The translations under genes were made by a program, and so were the position numbers. The notes below the pieces were generated by a model. That model ran no database searches. It saw only the letters and a program-made list of their open reading frames with translations, and was not told the origin of the DNA. Shown piece by piece: positions 3,768 through 28,661 of a stretch of 64,000 nt of DNA. The first letter of the stretch is position 1. Every line of letters begins with the position of its first letter. The stretch is from Candidatus Thorarchaeota archaeon. GTDB taxonomy: Archaea; Asgardarchaeota; Thorarchaeia; Thorarchaeales; Thorarchaeaceae. The DNA lies in assembly GCA_046482545.1 (NCBI GenBank), contig JAWOEX010000021.1, positions 103,041-167,040 on the forward strand. The letters run 5' to 3'.

Positions 3768-4574
3768 ATGCAATCTGACATTTACGGCAACGTGCCGGAC
3801 ATAGTTATAGATGTCCACGAAACGAAGGGCAAGCGGAAGAACGCAGTGAAGCATCTTATGTCCATGTTGGACAAAGAAGAAATTAACTATACAGTAGAAA
3901 AGCTGCCGATTGGCGATGTTCTAGGCACTGACGGGATTGCAATCGAGCGAAAAACCGTAAATGATCTTGTGCATACCTTGACAGGAAGCAAATCTGGCGT
4001 CCCACGTCTTAAGAAACAGATGGACGCTCTTCTTGAATATGAGCAACCATACTTACTCATTGAGAACTTGCTTGCAGTCCGCCGCGACCCGATGAAAGGA
4101 TGTGTGTATATCCCCTTTTCTTCAAAGAAGACGAAAAAGAAAGGGGGATATTACGTGACCATGGAGCGTGCAAGTTTCATCCATCCAAATTCGCTGGATG
4201 GATTGATTGATAGCATACGTGATCGCGGTATTGATATTCTAGAGGGTTTCAACGCGCTTCATTCAGCTGGACTTCTTTTCGGTATCCTAAATGAACAAGA
4301 CTGGGATGAAAGAGAGGTTACGCGGTTACCTGTAATTAGGACCCGGAAAGGGCTTGATAGCATGAGCGATGAACAGGAGTTCTTTGTGGCAGGTTTCCCT
4401 AACATCAACGCTGTCAGAGCAAAACAACTCTTGGAAAAATTCGGGAGCCCTTTCGAGGTTGTTACACGTACAGACGAATGGGGAGAAGTTCACGGAATAG
4501 GGCCCAAGACCGTTGAGGGGGTACGGAAAATGCTGTTTTCTAGTTATGAACCAGAGAAAGAAGACACGCCGTAG
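3768..4574 (+). CDS. ERCC4-domain nuclease (short XPF/Hef/Mus81-type, no helicase) with C-terminal (HhH)2
   Basis: ERK-type active-site motif GIAIERKTVNDL. C-terminal HhH motif GFPNINAVRAKQLLEKFGSPFEVVTRTDEWGEVHGIGPKTVEGV. Confidence 0.65.
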   Translation: MQSDIYGNVPDIVIDVHETKGKRKNAVKHLMSMLDKEEINYTVEKLPIGDVLGTDGIAIERKTVNDLVHTLTGSKSGVPRLKKQMDALLEYEQPYLLIENLLAVRRDPMKGCVYIPFSSKKTKKKGGYYVTMERASFIHPNSLDGLIDSIRDRGIDILEGFNALHSAGLLFGILNEQDWDEREVTRLPVIRTRKGLDSMSDEQEFFVAGFPNINAVRAKQLLEKFGSPFEVVTRTDEWGEVHGIGPKTVEGVRKMLFSSYEPEKEDTP

Positions 4575-4636
4575 CATTTAATAAACGATAACTATTTTAT
4601 GACCAAATAATAGTTACAAAACAAGGATGGTTACAT

Positions 4637-5725
4637 ATGGGCGACGATGTACGTATAGCCATAGCTGGACTGGGAAATTGTGCCTCTGCACTCATACAGG
4701 GTGTGCATTACTACAAAGATGCAAAAGCAGATGAAGAGGTTCCGGGCCTAATGCATGTTGACTTTGGGGGATATTTTCCGAAACACCTCAAGTTTGTGGC
4801 GGCTTTCGAAGCAAATGAGCGGAAGATAGGCAAAGATATCTCTGAAGCAATTTGGGAAGACCCAAATTGTTGTGAGAATTTTGTACCTGATTTACCCAAA
4901 ACAGGTGTCGAGGTATTACCTGGCCCAATTTCGGATGGTGTTGCAGACCACATGATGGATTCATTCTATGCCTATGATGATGATATTGAGCCCGTTGATG
5001 TGGCTGAAGAGCTCAAAGAAGCAGAAGCCGATATGTTGATTAACTATCTACCTGTGGGAAGCGCTGAAGGGGCACGGATATATGCAAAGGCGGCTCTCGA
5101 AGCCGGTGTTGCATTTGTCAATGCTATCCCCGAGTTTATTGTTTCCGACCCGAATGACCCAATAACCACGCAGTTCAGGGAGAAAGGCATACCATGTGCT
5201 GGTGATGATATCAAAAGCCAGCTAGGTGCTACCATTCTGCACAGAGTCTTGGCACAGCTGTTTGACAAGCGTGGTCTGATTGTTAATAATACATATCAGC
5301 TGAATATTGGAGGTAATACTGACTTCGAAAATATGCAGGTTGAGGATCGGCTGAGCAGCAAGCGAGTCAGTAAGACAGAAGCGGTCACAAGCTGCGTCAA
5401 GTATCATCTACCGACCAAAATCGGTCCGAGTGACTATGTCCCATTCCTTGACGATAATAAGATATGCTACATCTCCATGCGAGCCAATTCGTTCGGAGAC
5501 CTTCCAGTAGATGTGGATCTCAAGCTTTCAGTTCAGGACTCACCAAACAGTGCTGGAGTCATCATTGATGTGGCCAGAGCAATAAAGATAGCACTTGACC
5601 GGGGTGTAGGTGGCGAACTCTCAAGCATCAGTTCATACTCGTTCAAACACCCAAGATATCAAATTGATGACTTTGAGGCACGAAAGAGAGTAGATGAATT
5701 CATAGCTGGAGAAAGAGAGCGCTAG
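4637..5725 (+). CDS. myo-inositol-1-phosphate synthase (archaeal-type)
   Basis: 362 aa. N-terminal Rossmann segment RIAIAGLGNCASALIQGV. Overall match to archaeal MIPS-family signatures. Confidence 0.75.
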   Translation: MGDDVRIAIAGLGNCASALIQGVHYYKDAKADEEVPGLMHVDFGGYFPKHLKFVAAFEANERKIGKDISEAIWEDPNCCENFVPDLPKTGVEVLPGPISDGVADHMMDSFYAYDDDIEPVDVAEELKEAEADMLINYLPVGSAEGARIYAKAALEAGVAFVNAIPEFIVSDPNDPITTQFREKGIPCAGDDIKSQLGATILHRVLAQLFDKRGLIVNNTYQLNIGGNTDFENMQVEDRLSSKRVSKTEAVTSCVKYHLPTKIGPSDYVPFLDDNKICYISMRANSFGDLPVDVDLKLSVQDSPNSAGVIIDVARAIKIALDRGVGGELSSISSYSFKHPRYQIDDFEARKRVDEFIAGERER

Positions 5726-7019: not shown

Positions 7020-7586
7020 TTACAGTACCACGTTTTTTGCAAGCATCTCAAAAGCTTCTTCCACGTTCTGACCTGTTAGGGCACTGGTTTCCAGATACCC
7101 CGCTAAATCCTTCTTGATAACATATTCACGAGCTACTTCGGAACTGATAGTCCGTTGATCGTCCAAATCAACTTTGTTGGCCAGTACAATGATTGGAATG
7201 GACTCGTCTAGGGCTTTCTCGGTTTCTGCAATCCAATTGTCAAGAACATTGAATGTTGATTTCCGGGTGGTGTCGAAGACCAGCAAGGCTCCCTTTGCCC
7301 CGCGATAGTAGCTGTTTCGGATGAAGTCAAATCGCTTTTGTCCTGCCAAATCCCATATGAGAAGCTTAACTCGCTTCTCATTGCCACTTGAATCGTTTAC
7401 CGGTACTATCTTCACGGCGAATTGGCTTCCAATGGTTACTATGTATTGTTCAGTAAAGCGGTTGGTTAGAAATCGGTTGACTAGAGCGGTCTTTCCGCTA
7501 CCTCCAGCTCCTATCATGACCACTTTTCGTACAACGTGGAAATCTTGAGATGGTGAATTTGACACCGAATAATCCATTTCAATCAT
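7020..7586 (-). CDS. Small GTPase of Ras superfamily (Rab-like)
   Basis: P-loop GAGGSGKT. G3 motif WDLAGQKRF. Rab-type YYRGAKGALLVFD. G4 motif NKVD. G5 motif ETSALTG. Confidence 0.75.
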   Translation of the reverse strand: MIEMDYSVSNSPSQDFHVVRKVVMIGAGGSGKTALVNRFLTNRFTEQYIVTIGSQFAVKIVPVNDSSGNEKRVKLLIWDLAGQKRFDFIRNSYYRGAKGALLVFDTTRKSTFNVLDNWIAETEKALDESIPIIVLANKVDLDDQRTISSEVAREYVIKKDLAGYLETSALTGQNVEEAFEMLAKNVVL

Positions 7587-8083: not shown

Positions 8084-8614
8084 ATGAATCTGGGAATTCT
8101 TCTGAAGAGTATGAAACTAGCCTTTCGATCGAAGAGACGCGTTCTTTCATTCATAGTCATTTATTCAATACTCATCGTGCTGGTAGCAAAAGGGATTCAA
8201 GGTTCAGCTGGTTCCCTTCTGGAAATGCTCTTGTGGCCCCTGACTGCGCTGGTGGTTGCAACAGTGTATGCCATATTGATATCGCAGTTCCGTAAGCGTG
8301 ATGTAAGCATCCTCAAATGCATCGGCTGGACAAATCACGATGTGATGCTTCTGGTGGTAGGTGAGGTGGTTGTCGTTTCATTAGCCGCGTTTTTCCTAGT
8401 TTTCCAAGTCAGTGTCGAAATCCTAGGGTTGGTTGCCTATTTTGAGGGGTTGGACACAGGACTCCTCCAAATGCTACTGGACCTTATCGCAGTCGAATGG
8501 CAGCCAATGCTCGTTACACTCATCTATATCGTAGTGCTACAGCTTCCAGGAGTCGGTCTAGCACATTACCGCATGATGAAAATACCGCCTATGCAGGCGC
8601 TAAGGGAGGAATAG
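8084..8614 (+). CDS. Small membrane protein (FtsX-like permease fragment?)
   Basis: Four hydrophobic helices. Lies directly upstream of an ABC ATPase. Confidence 0.4.
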   Translation: MNLGILLKSMKLAFRSKRRVLSFIVIYSILIVLVAKGIQGSAGSLLEMLLWPLTALVVATVYAILISQFRKRDVSILKCIGWTNHDVMLLVVGEVVVVSLAAFFLVFQVSVEILGLVAYFEGLDTGLLQMLLDLIAVEWQPMLVTLIYIVVLQLPGVGLAHYRMMKIPPMQALREE

Positions 8615-8616
8615 GC

Positions 8617-9303
8617 ATGACTAATCCAATCCTAAGAGCAGAAGAAGTGAACAAGGAGTACGGTCGGGGAAAGAAGACAGTAGCTGCACTCAAGAGTGTT
8701 GATATAGAAGTAGCCCCGGGCGAGTTTGTGGCGGTCCATGGACCATCTGGATGTGGTAAGTCAACTCTCTTGCATGTCATGGCTGGACTCGAACAGCCAA
8801 CTTCTGGTCGAATTCTGATTGATGGCGTTGATGTAACATTGGTCAGTGAAAGGGACCTTCCACGCCTCCGCGCAAAGAAGATTGGATTTGTCTTTCAATC
8901 ATTCCTCCTCATCGAAGATTTGACCTCATTTGAGAACGTACAGTCAGTTTTGTGGCCAGATGAGGAATTGAACAAGAAGAAACAGGAAGCGAAGGCCCTT
9001 CGAGTATTGCGCGAAGTTGATATGTTAGAACGTAAAGATCATTTTCCACGCCAACTTAGCGGCGGAGAACAACAACGGGTAGCCATAGCTCGTGCACTTG
9101 TTAATGATCCGCCGATTCTCTTTTGCGATGAACCCACGGGCAATCTTGACTCAGAAAGTGGCGAGTCAATCATGAAAATCATCGCCAAGCTGAACAAGGA
9201 AAAAGGTATGACTGTAATTCTTGTTACGCACGATGAAAGTCTGGCAAAATTCGCCCAGAGAATCCTTCGTATGAAAGATGGCGTAATCACCTCCGATAAG
9301 TAA
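8617..9303 (+). CDS. ABC transporter ATP-binding protein (MacB/LolD-like)
   Basis: Walker A GPSGCGKST. Signature LSGGEQQRVAIARAL. Walker B ILFCDEPTGNLD. Start ATG at 8617. Confidence 0.8.
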   Translation: MTNPILRAEEVNKEYGRGKKTVAALKSVDIEVAPGEFVAVHGPSGCGKSTLLHVMAGLEQPTSGRILIDGVDVTLVSERDLPRLRAKKIGFVFQSFLLIEDLTSFENVQSVLWPDEELNKKKQEAKALRVLREVDMLERKDHFPRQLSGGEQQRVAIARALVNDPPILFCDEPTGNLDSESGESIMKIIAKLNKEKGMTVILVTHDESLAKFAQRILRMKDGVITSDK

Positions 9304-22739: not shown

Positions 22740-23504
22740 TCACTTCAGAGAAAGACCCAGTTCAGATATGGCTTCCGATGCCCATTCCTTCACAACTAGA
22801 GGCTTCTCTCTTCCAAATACCTTTAGCTTCTGGACTATATCCGCGTCCAACAGGCTGCTAACATAATATGAAACCAAACTCTTGTCCAGTGAAAGAATCC
22901 GACTAAGTTCTGCCTGTGTAATCTCAGAATTGGTTAAGCACTTTTCCACAATGGAAGCGACCGTCGGATTTCGAATTAGTGCAGCGAGTTCTAGGTTTCG
23001 CTTTTCCGATGTGAAGCCAGAGATGAAGAGATGACGCGTATTGCCCATTCTGTGGGAAACTACGAGTCCGGCGTCTTCCATATTAGAAAGATGGTATTGA
23101 AGCGCACCCATGGCACAATCCAAGTGTCGTCTCAATTCACGCAAATGGATACCGGGAAAATTCTCAATCTCATCCAGAATTCTCGCTCTTAATGTGACAC
23201 CCTGTTCTTTTTCTCCTGCATCGACCGAGATGGTTCCTATAACCAGTATAGATGGTATAATATTGCCCAGAGTGTTGGTAAGGGTGTTGTCCATTATTAC
23301 AGATGTACCCATCCTCATTGATGCAAAGCTCATATCACAGTCAACAGCTGCTTGATGCATAGATGCAACCTCACTAATTTCGTCAGCTGAAATTACTGCT
23401 GAGCCTCTCTGAACACTAGAAATCAAGAAGACCGCAAGACCGGACATCATGAGAACCATTACTGTCGCAGCCAACAGTCCTTTGGTACTTTTTCCAACAC
23501 TCAT
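22740..23504 (-). CDS. Membrane-anchored transcriptional regulator with two winged-helix (ArsR-like) domains
   Basis: N-terminal TM helix. Two wHTH segments: HLRELRRHLDCAMGALQYHLSNMEDAGLV and ITQAELSRILSLDKSLVSYYVSSLLDADIV. Confidence 0.5.
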   Translation of the reverse strand: MSVGKSTKGLLAATVMVLMMSGLAVFLISSVQRGSAVISADEISEVASMHQAAVDCDMSFASMRMGTSVIMDNTLTNTLGNIIPSILVIGTISVDAGEKEQGVTLRARILDEIENFPGIHLRELRRHLDCAMGALQYHLSNMEDAGLVVSHRMGNTRHLFISGFTSEKRNLELAALIRNPTVASIVEKCLTNSEITQAELSRILSLDKSLVSYYVSSLLDADIVQKLKVFGREKPLVVKEWASEAISELGLSLK

Positions 23505-23581
23505 TGTTTTTTACCGTGCATCAGATATTATCCTTTACAATTAAGGGATACGTTTGTTACATCGCCGTACGAGCACCTACT

Positions 23582-24136
23582 TTATCCTCGCGGGGGGTAA
23601 CTCATCTTAATGTGGAAGGTACAGGTTTCGTCCCCGATTGCCATGCATGTTTCTTCCTCAATCTGCAGTGTCTCGTATTCAATACGGTTATAGTCAGTCA
23701 GGTATTCCATAATCGATTCAATGAAACCCCGCAAGTAGTAGCAAGCCGGCTCATCAGATTCCATACTAGCAGCATAAGGATTCTCCTTGATTTCGATTAT
23801 TGCTTCCTCATCAAGAAATAGCTTGTAGAGCTTGGCTATTTCAATTTCTCCAAAAGGTACTATCAGCCGCTCCAAGGCCATAGCAATGAATTCAATTATT
23901 CCTTTGAAATCGCCAGGGGGAGTCTGCTCTCCTATCTTAAAATATTCCCGTTGTGCTTCCAATCCGGCTAGCCTTCCAGCACTATAGTAGAGGTCTCTAA
24001 CGCGATCGGGAAATAGGACCTCAATTCTAGCACCGAGTTTTGTCCAAGTCTTTGCAAAAAAGGCCTTCATAAGCTCAGTCGAATCGAGCCGTCCCTTCCA
24101 CCATTCTATGGTTTTTTTATCTGACATCAGGAGCAC
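23582..24136 (-). CDS. V4R-domain protein
   Basis: C-terminal segment EPACYYLRGFIESIMEYL...EETCMAIGDETCTFHI fits the V4R Cys pattern. Confidence 0.5.
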   Translation of the reverse strand: MLLMSDKKTIEWWKGRLDSTELMKAFFAKTWTKLGARIEVLFPDRVRDLYYSAGRLAGLEAQREYFKIGEQTPPGDFKGIIEFIAMALERLIVPFGEIEIAKLYKLFLDEEAIIEIKENPYAASMESDEPACYYLRGFIESIMEYLTDYNRIEYETLQIEEETCMAIGDETCTFHIKMSYPPRG

Positions 24137-24198
24137 TCCATAGTGAATGTTGCTATCTTCTCATAAGTGCTTTATTGTGATTTCTATCATTAGAGGCA

Positions 24199-24675
24199 TC
24201 ACCAGACAAGCCGCACATTCCATATGCAGCGGTCAGAGCCCGTTGCCCTAGACATTTCTTGAAAGACTTTGGCATCAACACCCTTGAGTTCTAATATGGA
24301 CTCCAAGATGCCACTGAAGATTTCTCCATAGCCAAAACCCCTCATGCCTTCAAGATGTACATCTTGGCACCATACACATTCTTCATCTGTTATTCGTACA
24401 CTTCCTCGAGCTGTATCCATATCGATTTCATCTGGCTTCCTGTCGTAAAGGGCTCTGAACACTACCTCAACTAGCTTTGATACATCTTCTCGAGTTTGGA
24501 TAGTTTCTGGTGTGTTCTCGGCAATATCTGAGTTGAGATACAAGTTGGTAGATATATCTCGCCCCACCTTCCGAAGTTGTTCGTTGGCTTTTTCGATACT
24601 GTCAGTGGAAGCCAAAACCCGGTCAACAATTCGAGAGTAAAGAGTTACCAGTAGTGGATTTTTAACGCTAACCAT
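24199..24675 (-). CDS. V4R-domain protein
   Basis: EECVWCQDVHLEGMRGFGYGEIFSGILESILEL...SDRCIWNV. Paralog of 27212..27763. Confidence 0.5.
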   Translation of the reverse strand: MVSVKNPLLVTLYSRIVDRVLASTDSIEKANEQLRKVGRDISTNLYLNSDIAENTPETIQTREDVSKLVEVVFRALYDRKPDEIDMDTARGSVRITDEECVWCQDVHLEGMRGFGYGEIFSGILESILELKGVDAKVFQEMSRATGSDRCIWNVRLVW

Positions 24676-24705
24676 TTTGGGTTGACCTCTAACTTAATTC
24701 GTGAG

Positions 24706-25704
24706 TTACAAGGTTCTGCCAATCATGACAAGACCATCTTTCCTGTATTTCCCAATTGTCCGAATAACCTTATTGAGAGGTGTATCAGTCATCTCAGCGA
24801 TTTGTTCTGGTGTATGATGCCCATCACAGAGGCTGATAATGTTCTGATCTTCTGAATCAACTTCCGACTCCTTGCCTTCGTACATGGGACATTTGACAAA
24901 GCGACCCATAGCACGTTCGACCTCTTGATCTTTCTCTGCACGCGGAAGGTCAACAATTCGTTTTGTAGCCGCCCAGCGCAGCAATTCCATGATGCGCTCA
25001 TGGGGCTGTAGCATAGCCTCTGCAATATCCTCTACACTCGTCTTGTCGTCAACAAGCATTAAGACATCGAATCCAAAATTGCGATACTTCTCTTTCATCG
25101 CTTTGTACAAATCGGAATCCAGAGATAGGGCATTCGAGTACTGTTCATGACGTTTTGGTATAGTATCTGACTTCAGAGTGAAGTCTTGCGGTTGCAGTTC
25201 CTCTTCAGGTTCTTTTCTTTCTTTAGGCTCTGGTTCTTTCGCTGGTGCTTCTTCGACAGCCGGCTCAGGTTTCGCTTCAGAGAGACTTGGCTCGCTCTCG
25301 GTAGAAGCTGCCTTAATTGCAATGCTTTCTAGAACCTCTAAGTTGGATTCTGCGGACTCCTCAAAATCATCAGGGGGAGGAGGCAAATCAATTCCTTCAA
25401 GTAATCGAAGAACATTCTTTGTCTTAGCGATTGCGAGTCCCAGCTGGAGCTCCGGTTCATAGAGAACTGTAAGAATCCAGTTAATATCAACTGGTGATAG
25501 TACAACGAGACCCTTTTCGGTGTCGATGGTCATAAGGCGCAAATCTGATTCATAGAGAGCGATGCTGTCCTTCACCCGCGGAAAGAGCTCGTCAGGAAAT
25601 GAAAAGCTAACGAAAGGTCTGCCAACTTTCGTCATCAATGAATAACCAAGCACTTGTTCGTCAAACCGAAGCTTGGATAGCGCTCGCTCTAAGTCACTGG
25701 ACAT
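24706..25704 (-). CDS. Roadblock/LC7 (MglB-like) domain protein with acidic linker and C-terminal Cys-containing wHTH-like domain
   Basis: N-terminal block LRFDEQVLGYSLMTKVGRPFVSF...GLVVLSPVDINWILTVLYEPELQLGLAIAKT is Roadblock-like. E/P/K-rich linker. C-terminal segment CPMYEG...LCDGHHTPEQIAEM. Start taken at MSSDLERAL. Confidence 0.5.
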   Translation of the reverse strand: MSSDLERALSKLRFDEQVLGYSLMTKVGRPFVSFSFPDELFPRVKDSIALYESDLRLMTIDTEKGLVVLSPVDINWILTVLYEPELQLGLAIAKTKNVLRLLEGIDLPPPPDDFEESAESNLEVLESIAIKAASTESEPSLSEAKPEPAVEEAPAKEPEPKERKEPEEELQPQDFTLKSDTIPKRHEQYSNALSLDSDLYKAMKEKYRNFGFDVLMLVDDKTSVEDIAEAMLQPHERIMELLRWAATKRIVDLPRAEKDQEVERAMGRFVKCPMYEGKESEVDSEDQNIISLCDGHHTPEQIAEMTDTPLNKVIRTIGKYRKDGLVMIGRTL

Positions 25705-25924
25705 TATCTGTGTACCTCTTCTGGGGATTGGGGCAGACCTAAACCTATCTCTGCATGAGAATGCAACCGCGGCAATCTGAAAAGGATTGCGGTTGAATCC
25801 TCGCATGACGACAGTCTCAGTTTGTCCTAATCAATCTAAAGGTGACATACTGGCCGTAGCATATTAACGCCAGTAACACAGGGATTCCATACCAAGAAAA
25901 TGATTAAGAGTGATTGAATGTTAG

Positions 25925-26554
25925 ATGAATAGTGCTAGAAAAGGTGGATATCACAAAATGCGAAATCTATTGGGAGCAATTGCTTCTGTTCTGCTTGGAT
26001 CCTATCTGTCATTCATGTTGATCGAAGGGAATGTTCTCCCATATTCTTCACCTTCTGATGCTTTGTGGTTTCTTATCGCCGGAGGAACTATACTCAATTC
26101 TGCGGTGACAGGTATATTCCAACCGAACTTCATTATACCCTATATTGGCATCTGGCTGATTATGGGGCTTATATCAGGCGTATTCTCAATATCGAAAAGC
26201 AATACTGTTAGAACCGCTTTGTGGATAGCGGTGATTATTGCAATCTTATCAATCCTGTCAGCATTTCTGCAAAATCCCTCAATCTGGTTTGGGGACATGT
26301 TGGAACGGAATTCGTTCTTGCTAGCCCAGTTCGTTCAAGCTATACCAACTTCGCTTCTTTCTCTTCCAAGTGCGATACCTATGGTTTATGTTAAACAGGT
26401 GCTCTTTTCTGAGGGTGAACCAAAACCACCCAACGAGATTCGGACCAGATGTGAATGTGGAGCGGTATATAAGTCAAAGCCTATGCTCTGCGCCGAATGT
26501 GGCAGGGAGCTACATGACCCGGACTCCGAATCTCCAAAACAACAACAAGTGTAG
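25925..26554 (+). CDS. Membrane protein with C-terminal zinc ribbon
   Basis: Five TM helices. C-terminal CECGAVYKSKPMLCAECG. Confidence 0.45.
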   Translation: MNSARKGGYHKMRNLLGAIASVLLGSYLSFMLIEGNVLPYSSPSDALWFLIAGGTILNSAVTGIFQPNFIIPYIGIWLIMGLISGVFSISKSNTVRTALWIAVIIAILSILSAFLQNPSIWFGDMLERNSFLLAQFVQAIPTSLLSLPSAIPMVYVKQVLFSEGEPKPPNEIRTRCECGAVYKSKPMLCAECGRELHDPDSESPKQQQV

Positions 26555-26556
26555 TC

Positions 26557-27075
26557 CTAGCGTTTTCGAGTAATGGCACCGCCCAGTACGCCGCCAATAG
26601 TTGCCCCAATAATTGGGTAGATAGTAGATTCAAGAAGGATTTGAAGTATGGTGAGCGATGCGGTTCCCAGAATAGCTGTGAAATTAACACCCGGAGCAAT
26701 AAAGAACACAAGCAACCAATTCAAAACAGCTCCGGAAATGACTGAGAAAATGGATGCCATAACTCCATTCGGAATCCCACGCGCTATCAGTCCAGCTATC
26801 AACCCCGCTGTGCCCCAAGCTAGAAACATGAGGACGGTGGCACCTTGAGCTCCAAAGCCGAGATAGGATGCCAAGCTAGTTGAACCGAGAGCACTCGGAT
26901 AGAGTACAGTACTGACCACCGCAATTCTCAGCTCAAGGTCATTCCGTGACAAGAAATCTATGACTATTAGAGGATCTATGATATCCTCCGGTATGAATTC
27001 GCCAAAGGCAAGAATTACAAATACAATCATATATGCTGCTACTAGGCCAATGACAGTACCAAGATTCTGTCCCAA
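26557..27075 (-). CDS. Polytopic membrane protein
   Basis: Hydrophobic ORF of 172 aa. Confidence 0.45.
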   Translation of the reverse strand: MGQNLGTVIGLVAAYMIVFVILAFGEFIPEDIIDPLIVIDFLSRNDLELRIAVVSTVLYPSALGSTSLASYLGFGAQGATVLMFLAWGTAGLIAGLIARGIPNGVMASIFSVISGAVLNWLLVFFIAPGVNFTAILGTASLTILQILLESTIYPIIGATIGGVLGGAITRKR

Positions 27076-27211
27076 AACTAAGGTCCTCCGCGCTTATGGG
27101 ATGATTCTAACACATGTACATTTATGGTTATTCTATATGGCCTTATAACCTATTTCTTAGGTGAATGACCTAGAAAGATTAAGCTGAATCCGTCAATAGC
27201 CAATTCCACTA

Positions 27212-27763
27212 TTAATTGGCCTTTATTGTCCATGTGCACGTTTCATCGCCCACAGCCTGACAAGACTCTTGGTAGGATTCGCCCTTGAAACCCCGCAAGT
27301 CAAGTACTGCTTGAAATACGCCGCTAACAAGATTGCAATATTGCAGTCCGGGCATTTCTGTTATTTGAACATCTTGACAGATTACACAGTTATCATCTGT
27401 GAACTTAATCGTCTTCTTGTCGTCACTTATCCAAGTAGATGTGAACTCTTGGCCCGAATTGACCTTATACGCTAATCTGAGTGTGGATGCAAACTCATGA
27501 AACTCACCCGCGTGTTCGCTTATCTTTTCCGCATAGTCCATTAGAAGGTGTTCTCCAACACGAAAACCAATATCCTTCAGCTGACCGTTGATTACTTCCA
27601 CGCTTTGAGAGTGCTGAATCAAGTAGTTCATCAGCTCTCTATATACGGACTGGAACAGTGGTTTAGCCACTTTGTCAATCTTTAGGGCCCATGCAAGCTT
27701 TCCTTTCAATCCCATTGTGTTTCCCTCATCGTCATTCTTTTCGTGTTCTATTCGTGCGAACAA
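27212..27763 (-). CDS. V4R-domain protein
   Basis: DNCVICQDVQITEMPGLQYCNLVSGVFQAVLDL...ESCQAVGDETCTWTI. Confidence 0.5.
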   Translation of the reverse strand: MFARIEHEKNDDEGNTMGLKGKLAWALKIDKVAKPLFQSVYRELMNYLIQHSQSVEVINGQLKDIGFRVGEHLLMDYAEKISEHAGEFHEFASTLRLAYKVNSGQEFTSTWISDDKKTIKFTDDNCVICQDVQITEMPGLQYCNLVSGVFQAVLDLRGFKGESYQESCQAVGDETCTWTIKAN

Positions 27764-28661
27764 ACTTGACTCGCTTACCCCGGTATGGCACTATTGACTG
27801 GAGTACTTGGAAATACTGAATGCCTAATTCATCGGCGATTTCTTGGACTGTGTGGTTACCATCACAGAACTCCAGAACTTGCCTGTGTTCACGCTTCGCT
27901 TTTCCAATGTTGCCACTGTAGACTGGACATTCCACAATTTCTCGTGTGTCAGCCTCCTGTTCTGATGGGCATTGAACCGAGACTACTCGCTTGGGTATAA
28001 GCCACTCTACAACAGGAATGATCCTATCTACTTGTTTGTCCAGTATCTCAGCTATCTGGAATATAGTCCGCTTCTCATCAGCCATAAGTAGAACGTCTAG
28101 CGCTAGATTTCCAAACTTTTCAATCATCACAGTGTGGAGATCGGAGCCGCTTTTCATGGCTTCAGAATACAGTTCGTCCTTGTGAACGATGCAACCATGG
28201 CGGACCACAAAATCGTGGTTTTCATCTGCGGATATTTCAGGTTCCTGCTCTTGAATCTCGTCCCTTTCGCGTTCTTCATGTGGGTCCTCGCTTATAGTAT
28301 AATCCGTAGACATAGGTGGATCCGGGAGAGCAGTATCCTGCAATGCCGTAACCACATCTCTAGTAGTTTGAAGAGAGGCGCCTAATGGTTTCTCAGGTAC
28401 AAATAGAACACCAAGTACCCAGTTTTCATCAACACGCGAAAGAACGACCGTTCCTGCATCGGTGAGAACATTCACAAGTTTAAGTGATGACGCGTGCGCC
28501 TTCATCGTCCCTTTTAGCTGAGGCAAGATTTCTTCTGGCATGGAGAAGGAGAGAAATGGCTCCCCATCAGTAGTGAAAAGTGAATAGGCGCTGACTGATT
28601 CATCGAATCGCAGCTTCCCGAATACATGATCCAAATCCAAAGGCGTTTCACGTCCGTCCAC
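27732..28661 (-). CDS. Roadblock/LC7 domain protein with C-terminal Cys-containing wHTH-like domain (paralog of 24706..25704)
   Basis: LRFDESVSAYSLFTTDGEPFLSF...GTVVLSRVDENWVLGVLFVPEKPLGASLQTT. C-terminal segment VECPVYSGN...EFCDGNHTVQEIADELG. Confidence 0.5.
   Translation of the reverse strand: MDGRETPLDLDHVFGKLRFDESVSAYSLFTTDGEPFLSFSMPEEILPQLKGTMKAHASSLKLVNVLTDAGTVVLSRVDENWVLGVLFVPEKPLGASLQTTRDVVTALQDTALPDPPMSTDYTISEDPHEERERDEIQEQEPEISADENHDFVVRHGCIVHKDELYSEAMKSGSDLHTVMIEKFGNLALDVLLMADEKRTIFQIAEILDKQVDRIIPVVEWLIPKRVVSVQCPSEQEADTREIVECPVYSGNIGKAKREHRQVLEFCDGNHTVQEIADELGIQYFQVLQSIVPYRGKRVKFVRTNRTRKE

Follow-up and report, generated by a model that had tools for sequence, protein, structure and literature searches.

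A duplicated pairing of NPRL2-like Roadblock–winged-helix genes with TRAPPC3-like genes in Thorarchaeota

The TRAPP core consists of Bet3/TRAPPC3, Trs31 and Trs33 together with the longin subunits Bet5, Trs23 and Trs20, and is a guanine nucleotide exchange factor (GEF) for Rab1/Ypt1. NPRL2 and NPRL3 (Npr2 and Npr3 in yeast) are subunits of GATOR1/SEACIT, the GTPase-activating protein (GAP) for RagA/Gtr1, and the winged helices of GATOR1 mediate protein contacts. In this study, we analysed a 64,000-nucleotide stretch of a Thorarchaeota contig (hereafter, the window), in which positions 22740-28661 hold eight open reading frames (ORFs), named A to H here. The results showed that this region holds two ancient paralogous modules, H-G and D-C-B, in which a long protein of predicted NPRL2-like architecture (D or H) is encoded next to a TRAPPC3-like protein (C or G); the pairing combines elements of TRAPP and GATOR1, two eukaryotic complexes that share no subunits. 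We found no description of the duplicated NPRL2-like/TRAPPC3-like pairing in the literature searched, and this conserved pairing seems to be undescribed. We assign a probability of about 0.4 to the explanation that the pair is a TRAPP-core/GATOR1-like scaffold regulating a small GTPase.

The original prediction, made from the letters of the stretch, had proposed a duplicated cassette, and the duplication proved real: all of the genes were present, D and H were paralogous over their full length (BLASTP, 33% identity, E 3e-58) and encoded 2 kb apart, and G and C were both TRAPPC3-like. All eight ORFs lie on the strands first reported (plus for E, minus for the other seven), in the transcription order H, G, F, E (opposite strand), D, C, B, A, with E convergent with F and divergent from D. 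The spacer between D and C is 30 nt and includes two stop codons. The start of D at 25704 is backed by orthologue N-termini and a conserved GAGGTG ribosome-binding site. For G, the ATG at 27715 is the most likely start because orthologues begin MGxKGKLAW; the coordinates 27212-27763 given for this gene at first relied on a TTG start at 27763 that has no orthologue support. With G starting at 27715, H and G are therefore 16 nt apart and do not overlap.

We compared C, G and B with the Pfam families TRAPP (PF04051, cut-off 27 bits) and V4R (PF02830, cut-off 31 bits). The results showed that C (33.3 bits) and G (34.3 bits) both exceeded the TRAPP cut-off, while B passed the V4R cut-off (39.3 bits), G fell below it (13.4 bits) and C had no V4R match. 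Among PDB sequences, C matched TRAPPC3 of Thorarchaeota SMTZ1-45 (7yh3_A, E 9.2e-69) and the AB25 protein (7yh2_A, E 3.4e-68), and it is the orthologue of the crystallised Thor-TRAPPC3. G matched 7yh3 at E 1.8e-23 and eukaryotic TRAPPC3 chains at E 1.5e-9 to 7e-4. B, with V4R as its only family and no PDB sequence match, does not qualify for the TRAPP Bet3/TRAPPC3 family. C is thus one of the known Asgard eukaryotic-signature proteins, with G as the second paralogue and B as a third that is more V4R-like. The earlier description of these partners as V4R proteins holds for the V4R superfamily and for B, but C and G are TRAPPC3/Bet3-like. All four Cys of the Zn-site region are kept in G. At about residue 117, C reads GYGEIF, compared with GYCE[IV]F in other Thorarchaeota orthologues and in both crystallised proteins, and the Gly at the third Cys position leaves it with three of the four. 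A TRAPP protein of Ranarchaeia, a separate Asgard class, has none of the four (locus L005, 7116-7631).

The crystallised Thor-TRAPPC3 is a Zn-binding homodimer closer to the eukaryotic TRAPPC3/C6 heterodimer than to the bacterial V4R protein PoxR, and a Heimdall protein fuses a longin domain to a TRAPPC3 domain (Tran et al., PMC10933270). The locus resembles the TRAPP core in that C and G pass Pfam TRAPP, in that C is orthologous to Thor-TRAPPC3, which forms Bet3-type dimers, and in that several Bet3-family paralogues (C, G and B) stand beside Roadblock/longin-superfamily genes, the same two fold classes from which the TRAPP core is built. It differs in that the partner is a Roadblock domain with winged helices instead of a sedlin/synbindin-type longin, and in that the archaeal proteins retain the Cys4 Zn site (three Cys in C of the window).

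The model of D was built with AlphaFold2 on 53 homologues and had a mean predicted local distance difference test (pLDDT) score of 85.5. In this model, residues 1-103 follow the order alpha-beta-beta-alpha-beta-beta-beta-alpha, which places the predicted N-domain in the Roadblock fold. Structural comparison gave scores of 12.5 for MglC, 12.4 for Streptomyces CvnB5, 12.1 for MglB and 12.0 for the Thorarchaeota Roadblock protein 7f8m, and Foldseek returned the same set at E 2e-6 to 1e-4. Pfam Robl_LC7 (PF03259) matched neither D nor H up to E 1 and gave weak matches in 25 of the 53 family members (best E 0.028), which does not establish membership by sequence. The N-terminal Roadblock domain of the original prediction is therefore clear from structure, but its sequence match is not significant. 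Searches of PDB sequences, with D by phmmer and with the 53-member profile by hmmsearch, yielded nothing relevant, so the Roadblock and NPRL2 assignments rest on structure searches.

The acidic linker that had been proposed between the domains was confirmed, with a net charge of -15 in D and -12 in H. Its centre in D (residues 134-157) has a pLDDT below 50 and is predicted to be disordered, and a helix of lower confidence is modelled at residues 114-133. C-terminal to the linker, the winged-helix fold expected from the letters was found, but as two tandem winged helices (WH1 and WH2) in D and H, not as a single domain. The Cys motif CP.Y...CDG.HT..EIA reported at the outset was present in both proteins, as KCPMYEG...LCDGHHTPEQIAE in D and ECPVYSG...FCDGNHTVQEIAD in H, and the winged-helix region of D carries the signature hh.hhDG..T...IA and a V.CP.FEGD strand. 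We considered the Cys pair of WH2 (C272, C293) as a metal site and judged a structural Zn site unlikely, because just two Cys are conserved and some members carry Val or Leu in place of C272. Pfam HTH_47 matched H with 30.6 bits in two stretches and was weak within the long proteins' C-terminal part. The DUF742 family, which we take to be CvnC, the winged helix-turn-helix (wHTH) partner of the Roadblock protein CvnB and the GTPase CvnD in Streptomyces conservons, matched 10 of the 53 family members weakly (best E 0.004, below the Pfam cut-off).

The long proteins form a narrow family. Against 1.84 billion representatives, a profile search returned 63 matches, of which few clusters were full-length and most others were fragments or the winged-helix part alone. 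Named relatives came from metagenome-assembled genomes (MAGs) of Thorarchaeota or Promethearchaeota, with one labelled Lokiarchaeota. The closest was 97% identical to D, and the source names among the relatives listed were all 'hypothetical protein'. P0137 (loci L006 and L007, 6001-6624), a 207-aa relative encoded on its own without a TRAPP neighbour, combines a D-like Roadblock domain with just one winged helix, and 3 kb upstream of it there is a separate Robl_LC7 gene.

Searching with D, Foldseek produced full-length alignments in the same order, over 361-408 columns, to yeast Npr2 (8adl_S) and to GATOR1 chains of NPRL2 length (9o5a_H, 9o5d_D and 9v0j_A), at E 5e-6 to 1.4e-4; a sequence check ties the GATOR1 entries 9o5a, 9o5d and 9v0j to NPRL2. 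In the structural ranking, human NPRL2 was second (7.6), 3k9t third (7.6), NPRL3 fifth (7.1) and Npr3 ninth (6.8); 3k9t is the structure described in the paper citing PF16221/HTH_47. For both halves of D as well as for the full length, NPRL2/Npr2 was among the best structural matches. D is thus predicted to carry a longin-type N-domain followed by winged helices, in the NPRL2/NPRL3 order.

Several features are shared with NPRL2 and NPRL3: a Roadblock/longin-superfamily platform domain at the N-terminus followed by C-terminal winged helices in the same order, the presence of two paralogues (D and H, compare Nprl2-Nprl3), and a winged-helix signature, hh.hhDG.....I[AS], that is visible at NPRL2 residues 194-210. 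The sole hhalign alignment sets 'CP.FEGD ... LCDG..T..IA' of D on 'VPVFTKD ... YIDGFRHIQKIS' of NPRL2, for which the human sequence was verified against 6ces_N. HTH_NPRL3 was matched only by P0162, a distant relative (31.5 bits). In contrast to NPRL2 and NPRL3 themselves, D and H lack significant sequence or profile similarity to these proteins; the genomic partner here is TRAPPC3-like, a type of subunit that GATOR1 does not have; and no DEPDC5-like gene turned up, although no search was aimed at DEPDC5. The D loop between strands 4 and 5 reads S-P-V-D-x-N-W, without Arg, and by secondary-structure order would be the topological counterpart of the arginine-finger loop of NPRL2 (R78). Directly before strand 2, D has an invariant G28-x-P30, which comes close to the 'GP motif' described for GAP longins (PMC12290439) without matching it exactly and is a lead only. 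A family with a Roadblock/longin domain and an NPRL2-type C-terminal part has been reported in 'most Thor MAGs' (Liu et al. 2020, preprint, bioRxiv 10.1101/2020.10.19.343400); judging by the matching description and not by an accession match, it is probably the D/H family. The original prediction had regarded the whole as an unrecognised system, which does not hold, given that C is the orthologue of the published Thor-TRAPPC3 (PMC10933270) and that Liu et al. had reported the NPRL2-type architecture. The original prediction had read most of the anatomy of the locus correctly. The locus is less novel than first proposed because its components are known Asgard eukaryotic-signature proteins.

Conservation of the gene pair was assessed in a scan of species-representative genomes, which gave 65 loci annotated by phmmer with the window proteins as queries. 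The results showed an essentially invariant order in Thorarchaeota (L13e, PfkB, H, G, F, E on the reverse strand, D, C, B, A, an ATP-binding cassette (ABC) ATPase, FtsX, and lysyl-tRNA synthetase (LysRS)), which was the same on three long contigs; in roughly half of the loci, DUF72 was detected as well, upstream of L13e. C follows D in 60 of 60 Thorarchaeota loci that extend far enough, B is conserved after C, and G follows H in 54 loci, with no G detected in two. In these two (L026, 3719-4545; L045, 3105-3724), no G was found between H and F at E <1e-5, and a gap of 600-800 nt is present, in which G may be divergent or disrupted. Because gene order is nearly invariant across the Thorarchaeota loci, the D/H duplication is old.

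The pair also occurs outside Thorarchaeota, so that the gene-neighbourhood check called for with the original prediction bore out the adjacency both within and beyond this group. A divergent lineage (L069, L076 and L077; hereafter, the L069 lineage) encodes a D-like protein, 42% identical, with the Roadblock–winged-helix, TRAPP (28.8 bits) and V4R genes in a row, the V4R gene after the TRAPP gene, and with flanks unrelated to those in Thorarchaeota (TrmO, M24 peptidase and TldD). Directly upstream of this cassette, and divergently transcribed, is a gene for a 236-aa small GTPase, followed by one for a tetratricopeptide repeat (SNAP-like) protein. The GTPase gene (4908-5618, minus strand, in L069; also in L076 and L077) encodes the G1 motif GPYASGKS and a C-terminal tail of about 70 aa that resembles a winged helix; tblastn found no orthologue of it in the window. 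In Ranarchaeia, locus L005 encodes P0146, a 370-aa protein with three D-type winged helices, and a PF04051 TRAPP gene starts 3 nt after it. The N-domain of P0146 shows a longin-like pattern by eye only. Homologue searches with P0146 and the L005 TRAPP protein returned the queries themselves only, and a genome scan with P0146 returned nothing. In a second Ranarchaeia genome (locus L078), P0169 aligned to both winged helices of D (hhalign 97.4%, E 1e-11). The preceding gene, of 207 aa, carries a D-type WH2 (hhalign 96%, E 4e-9), and a TRAPP gene (27.6 bits) lies 18 nt after P0169. The two successive D-type WH2 genes at 4345-4968 and 5001-5960 of L078, followed by TRAPP, run parallel to D and H of Thorarchaeota. 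The L069 lineage, L005 and L078 thus add at least three contexts in which a D-type winged-helix gene is associated with a TRAPPC3-like gene.

Pairing with TRAPP is not universal among proteins with the winged-helix module, since relatives in Helarchaeota and Freyarchaeota (L008, L009, L079 and L080) have no TRAPP neighbour. A Rag-like GTPase gene three genes from the L008 relative was too weak a link to count. In Freyarchaeota locus L079 (3971-4912), the gene directly upstream of a 249-aa D-like winged-helix protein encodes a gelsolin-repeat protein, another eukaryotic-signature protein.

The whole L13e-LysRS stretch, about 12 kb, is syntenic across Thorarchaeota, and because housekeeping genes (LysRS, L13e and GlnA) are frozen in the same block, conservation within Thorarchaeota says little about function. 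This would fit a gene order that is simply inherited, with the NPRL2-like and TRAPPC3-like proteins acting apart. We consider this explanation highly improbable, since the pair recurs with unrelated flanks in the further contexts above, was duplicated as a unit, has window spacers of just 16-30 nt, and has a counterpart in the Heimdall longin-TRAPPC3 fusion (PMC10933270).

Under the scaffold explanation, the Roadblock domains of D and H would dimerise, as homo- or heterodimers, by analogy with LAMTOR2-LAMTOR3, MglB and Nprl2-Nprl3, and, much as Bet3 attaches to the longin subunits in the TRAPP core, TRAPPC3-like dimers may dock on this platform. Such a complex would regulate, in GEF/GAP fashion, or scaffold one of the numerous small GTPases of Asgard archaea, with the GTPase encoded elsewhere in Thorarchaeota; the TRAPPC3/V4R subunits could add a small-molecule or redox input through their ligand cavity and Cys/Zn site. 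The analysis shows what the parts are and how they fold, that they are paralogous and that the pairing is conserved, and from this we infer the physical complex, its GTPase target and the direction of regulation; the evidence that points to such a scaffold is the NPRL2-like folds, the orthology of C with Thor-TRAPPC3, the linkage of the pair across contexts, the L069 GTPase, the Heimdall fusion and the weak DUF742 matches. A more specific form, in which a D-H Roadblock heterodimer (Nprl2-Nprl3-like) is flanked by TRAPPC3-like dimers (Bet3-like) and acts as GEF or GAP for an Asgard small GTPase, is in our view unlikely.

Several results weigh against this explanation. Pfam NPR2/NPR3 was absent from the top-listed families of the 53 members, the hhalign comparison of the family with human NPRL2 fell short of significance (probability 0.2%, E 0.32), and the family profile found no NPRL2 match among PDB sequences. 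The D loop that by topology would correspond to that of R78 has no NPRL2-type arginine, WH2 is mostly basic and compatible with DNA binding, and V4R joined to helix-turn-helix (HTH) is a known design of transcription sensors. No GTPase gene lies in or adjoining the locus in any Thorarchaeota genome examined, and the single adjacent GTPase of the L069 lineage could be due to chance, because Asgard genomes carry many small GTPases.

Among Roadblock GTPase platforms (MglB-MglA, LAMTOR2/3 and CvnB-CvnC-CvnD), the locus is similar in the association of a Roadblock domain with a winged-helix module and, in the L069 lineage only, in an adjacent GTPase; the DUF742 matches, below the Pfam cut-off, are a likeness to conservons. 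It does not form a conservon-type operon (Roadblock, DUF742 wHTH, small GTPase and CvnA-like sensor): the Roadblock domain and winged helix are fused in D and H, with two winged helices, and the Thorarchaeota locus has no GTPase and showed no CvnA-like gene. To our knowledge, TRAPPC3-like partners are unknown in MglB-MglA, Ragulator or conservon systems. In the window, as first reported, no GTPase is adjacent to the locus and the nearest is 15 kb away, at 7020-7586 (minus strand); this gene proved to be a genuine Ras/Rab-like GTPase (Pfam Ras, E 5e-48). It adjoins an M42 peptidase gene, with a second FtsX/ABC pair about 0.5 kb off on the other strand (8084-9303, plus). The proposal of a 'GTPase-independent' switch was weakened because a small GTPase is divergent from the cassette in the L069 lineage.

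The main alternative to the GTPase scaffold is a ligand or redox transcription switch, in which the V4R/TRAPPC3-like proteins would sense through their cavity and Cys/Zn site and the Roadblock–winged-helix proteins would bind DNA, as a split MsvR (HTH plus V4R) or PoxR/DmpR-type sensor. We regard it as possible but doubtful. The winged helices weakly match the DNA-binding HTH families TrmB, Sigma70_r4, HTH_5 and MarR-type, and most members have a basic WH2 (mean net charge +4, pI 9.1), in keeping with such a switch; WH1, however, is acidic, and WH2 of the window's D has a net charge of -2. As in MsvR and PoxR/DmpR, a V4R-superfamily fold with a Cys-rich Zn site co-occurs with a winged helix, B passes Pfam V4R, and NCBIfam MsvR gives weak matches to B and G in its V4R part. 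In contrast to those sensors, the two domain types are on separate polypeptides: B, C and G are single-domain proteins of 158-184 aa, with the winged helices on D and H, and none is a V4R-HTH fusion. C and G, moreover, pass TRAPP and are below the V4R threshold, and the Roadblock domain and acidic linker of D and H have no counterpart in MsvR or PoxR/DmpR. The V4R domain of PoxR binds phenols and shares the 4-Cys Zn site with Thor-TRAPPC3, which supports a sensing role, but the structure of C is nearer to TRAPPC3 of eukaryotes than to V4R of bacteria (PMC10933270). The switch is also opposed by the closest structural hits to the two halves of D, which are NPRL2/Npr2 and Roadblock GTPase-platform proteins, and by the adjacent GTPase of the L069 lineage.

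A conserved 18-nt element, ACCGCAATCCTTTTCAGA, lies on the minus strand upstream of D, spanning 72-89 nt before the D start in the window. It was present in 32 of 34 upstream regions (the window and 33 Thorarchaeota loci), starting 78-91 nt before the D start codon, and in many species it is followed by a partial dyad, TTTTCAGA-N4-6-TCNGAAAA. Together with the long 5' leader and the GAGGTG ribosome-binding site, the element is a candidate promoter or operator, as read from sequence. Both the element with its dyad and the next gene A, which encodes a double-wHTH protein, would suit a transcription switch, but the element occurs once in the window and is matched to no binding protein. A 14-nt inverted repeat upstream of D (25757-25770 / 25789-25802) was rejected: it is not conserved as such, whereas the overlapping 18-nt element is.

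Table 1. Positions in the window of the genes, domains and upstream element of the two modules and their neighbours
Feature	Position	Strand	Description	Basis
H	27732..28661	-	309 aa, paralogue 2; Roadblock, acidic linker and two winged helices (predicted NPRL2/3-like)	ORF; 33% identity to D; Pfam HTH_47; equal position in 54 loci
G	27212..27715	-	TRAPPC3/Bet3-like paralogue 2	Pfam TRAPP; 7yh3 match
F	26557..27075	-	3-4 transmembrane (TM) helices, glycine-zipper membrane protein downstream of G; Thorarchaeota-specific neighbour	
E	25925..26554	+	4-TM protein with C-terminal Cys4 zinc ribbon; Thorarchaeota-specific neighbour	
18-nt element ACCGCAATCCTTTTCAGA	25776..25793	-	Candidate promoter/operator of the D-C-B(-A) unit	
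D	24706..25704	-	332 aa, paralogue 1; Roadblock, acidic linker and two winged helices (predicted NPRL2/3-like)	
D residues 1-105	25390..25704	-	Predicted Roadblock-fold domain	
D residues 106-184	25153..25389	-	Acidic, Pro/Glu-rich linker, centre predicted disordered	
D residues 185-332	24709..25152	-	Predicted tandem winged helices, WH1 ~185-256 and WH2 ~266-332	
C	24199..24675	-	158 aa, Thorarchaeota TRAPPC3 (Bet3-like) orthologue, 30 nt downstream of D	
B	23582..24136	-	184 aa, V4R-domain paralogue, third gene of cassette 1	
A	22740..23504	-	254 aa, one N-terminal TM helix and two wHTH domains (HVO_0163-N / ArsR-MarR type)	

The region is flanked downstream of A by genes for an ABC ATPase, an FtsX permease and LysRS, and on the upstream side by a PfkB kinase gene. 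The content of guanine plus cytosine is flat over the window (0.43-0.47), so there is no sign of a foreign insert. Protein A matched Pfam HTH_HVO_0163_N (E 2.3e-15) as well as HTH_24 and MarR_2; it has one TM helix at residues 10-28, and both HTH domains are strongly conserved. A Lys-containing N-terminus precedes this helix, and the positive-inside rule would put both wHTH domains outside the cell, which would be an odd place for a regulator that binds DNA. E combines four TM helices with the motif C.CGA..KS.P..C.eCG, conserved at its C-terminus, and F has three or four TM helices with glycine-zipper character. Both are well conserved at the same position in the Thorarchaeota loci, and neither matched a family in the family-library searches.

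These neighbours bear on a further explanation, in which the TRAPPC3/V4R proteins would carry a lipid-like, hydrophobic ligand at the membrane and the Roadblock–winged-helix proteins would tether them to E, F and the MacB-type ABC exporter. The internal cavities of Thor-TRAPPC3, which suggest ligand binding, the ligand transport that the authors of its structure propose and the binding of palmitate by mouse TRAPPC3 are consistent with it (PMC10933270), as is the fact that E, F, A and the ABC/FtsX pair are co-syntenic in Thorarchaeota loci that extend far enough, with E and F being well-conserved membrane proteins. However, this synteny also includes LysRS, L13e and GlnA, so co-location there carries little functional weight; no membrane segment was predicted in D, H, C, G or B; and E, F, A and ABC/FtsX are absent from the L069-lineage and Ranarchaeia contexts, that is, wherever the pair occurs outside Thorarchaeota. 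We therefore consider lipid handling quite unlikely. The same comparison tells against the 'membrane-to-transcription module' of the original prediction, which rests on A, E, F and the MacB-like exporter, a set of neighbours not seen beside the pair beyond Thorarchaeota. A is probably not a core part, and A, E and F may be Thorarchaeota-specific accessories; the comparison across lineages gives no support for them as core parts.

Asgard archaea have dozens of genes for Roadblock, longin and TRAPPC3-like proteins and for small GTPases. Tran et al. (PMC10933270) emphasise that operons of MK-D1 do not, as a rule, join a small GTPase gene to genes for Roadblock, longin or TRAPPC3 proteins, so that genome layout does not reveal which partners belong together. 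The pair names five soluble proteins (D, H, C, G and B) as a candidate complex, and the L069 lineage adds a candidate cognate GTPase. If the more specific form with a D-H heterodimer is true, it would provide the first match, defined by an operon, of Asgard GTPase regulators with their subunits, and the D-H/TRAPPC3-like assembly would be a present-day relative of a module older than the divergence of the TRAPP core from the longin-GAP complexes (GATOR1, FLCN and C9orf72-SMCR8). The pair is a candidate, open to test, for an archaeal forerunner of trafficking complexes that regulate GTPases. If D, H, C, G and B assemble, either the Bet3-plus-platform architecture of TRAPP would be older than eukaryotes or Bet3-like subunits would have been the original partners of an NPRL-type platform; should the winged helices bind DNA instead, folds of eukaryotic trafficking regulators would serve archaeal transcription control. 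Either outcome bears on the origin of trafficking regulators.

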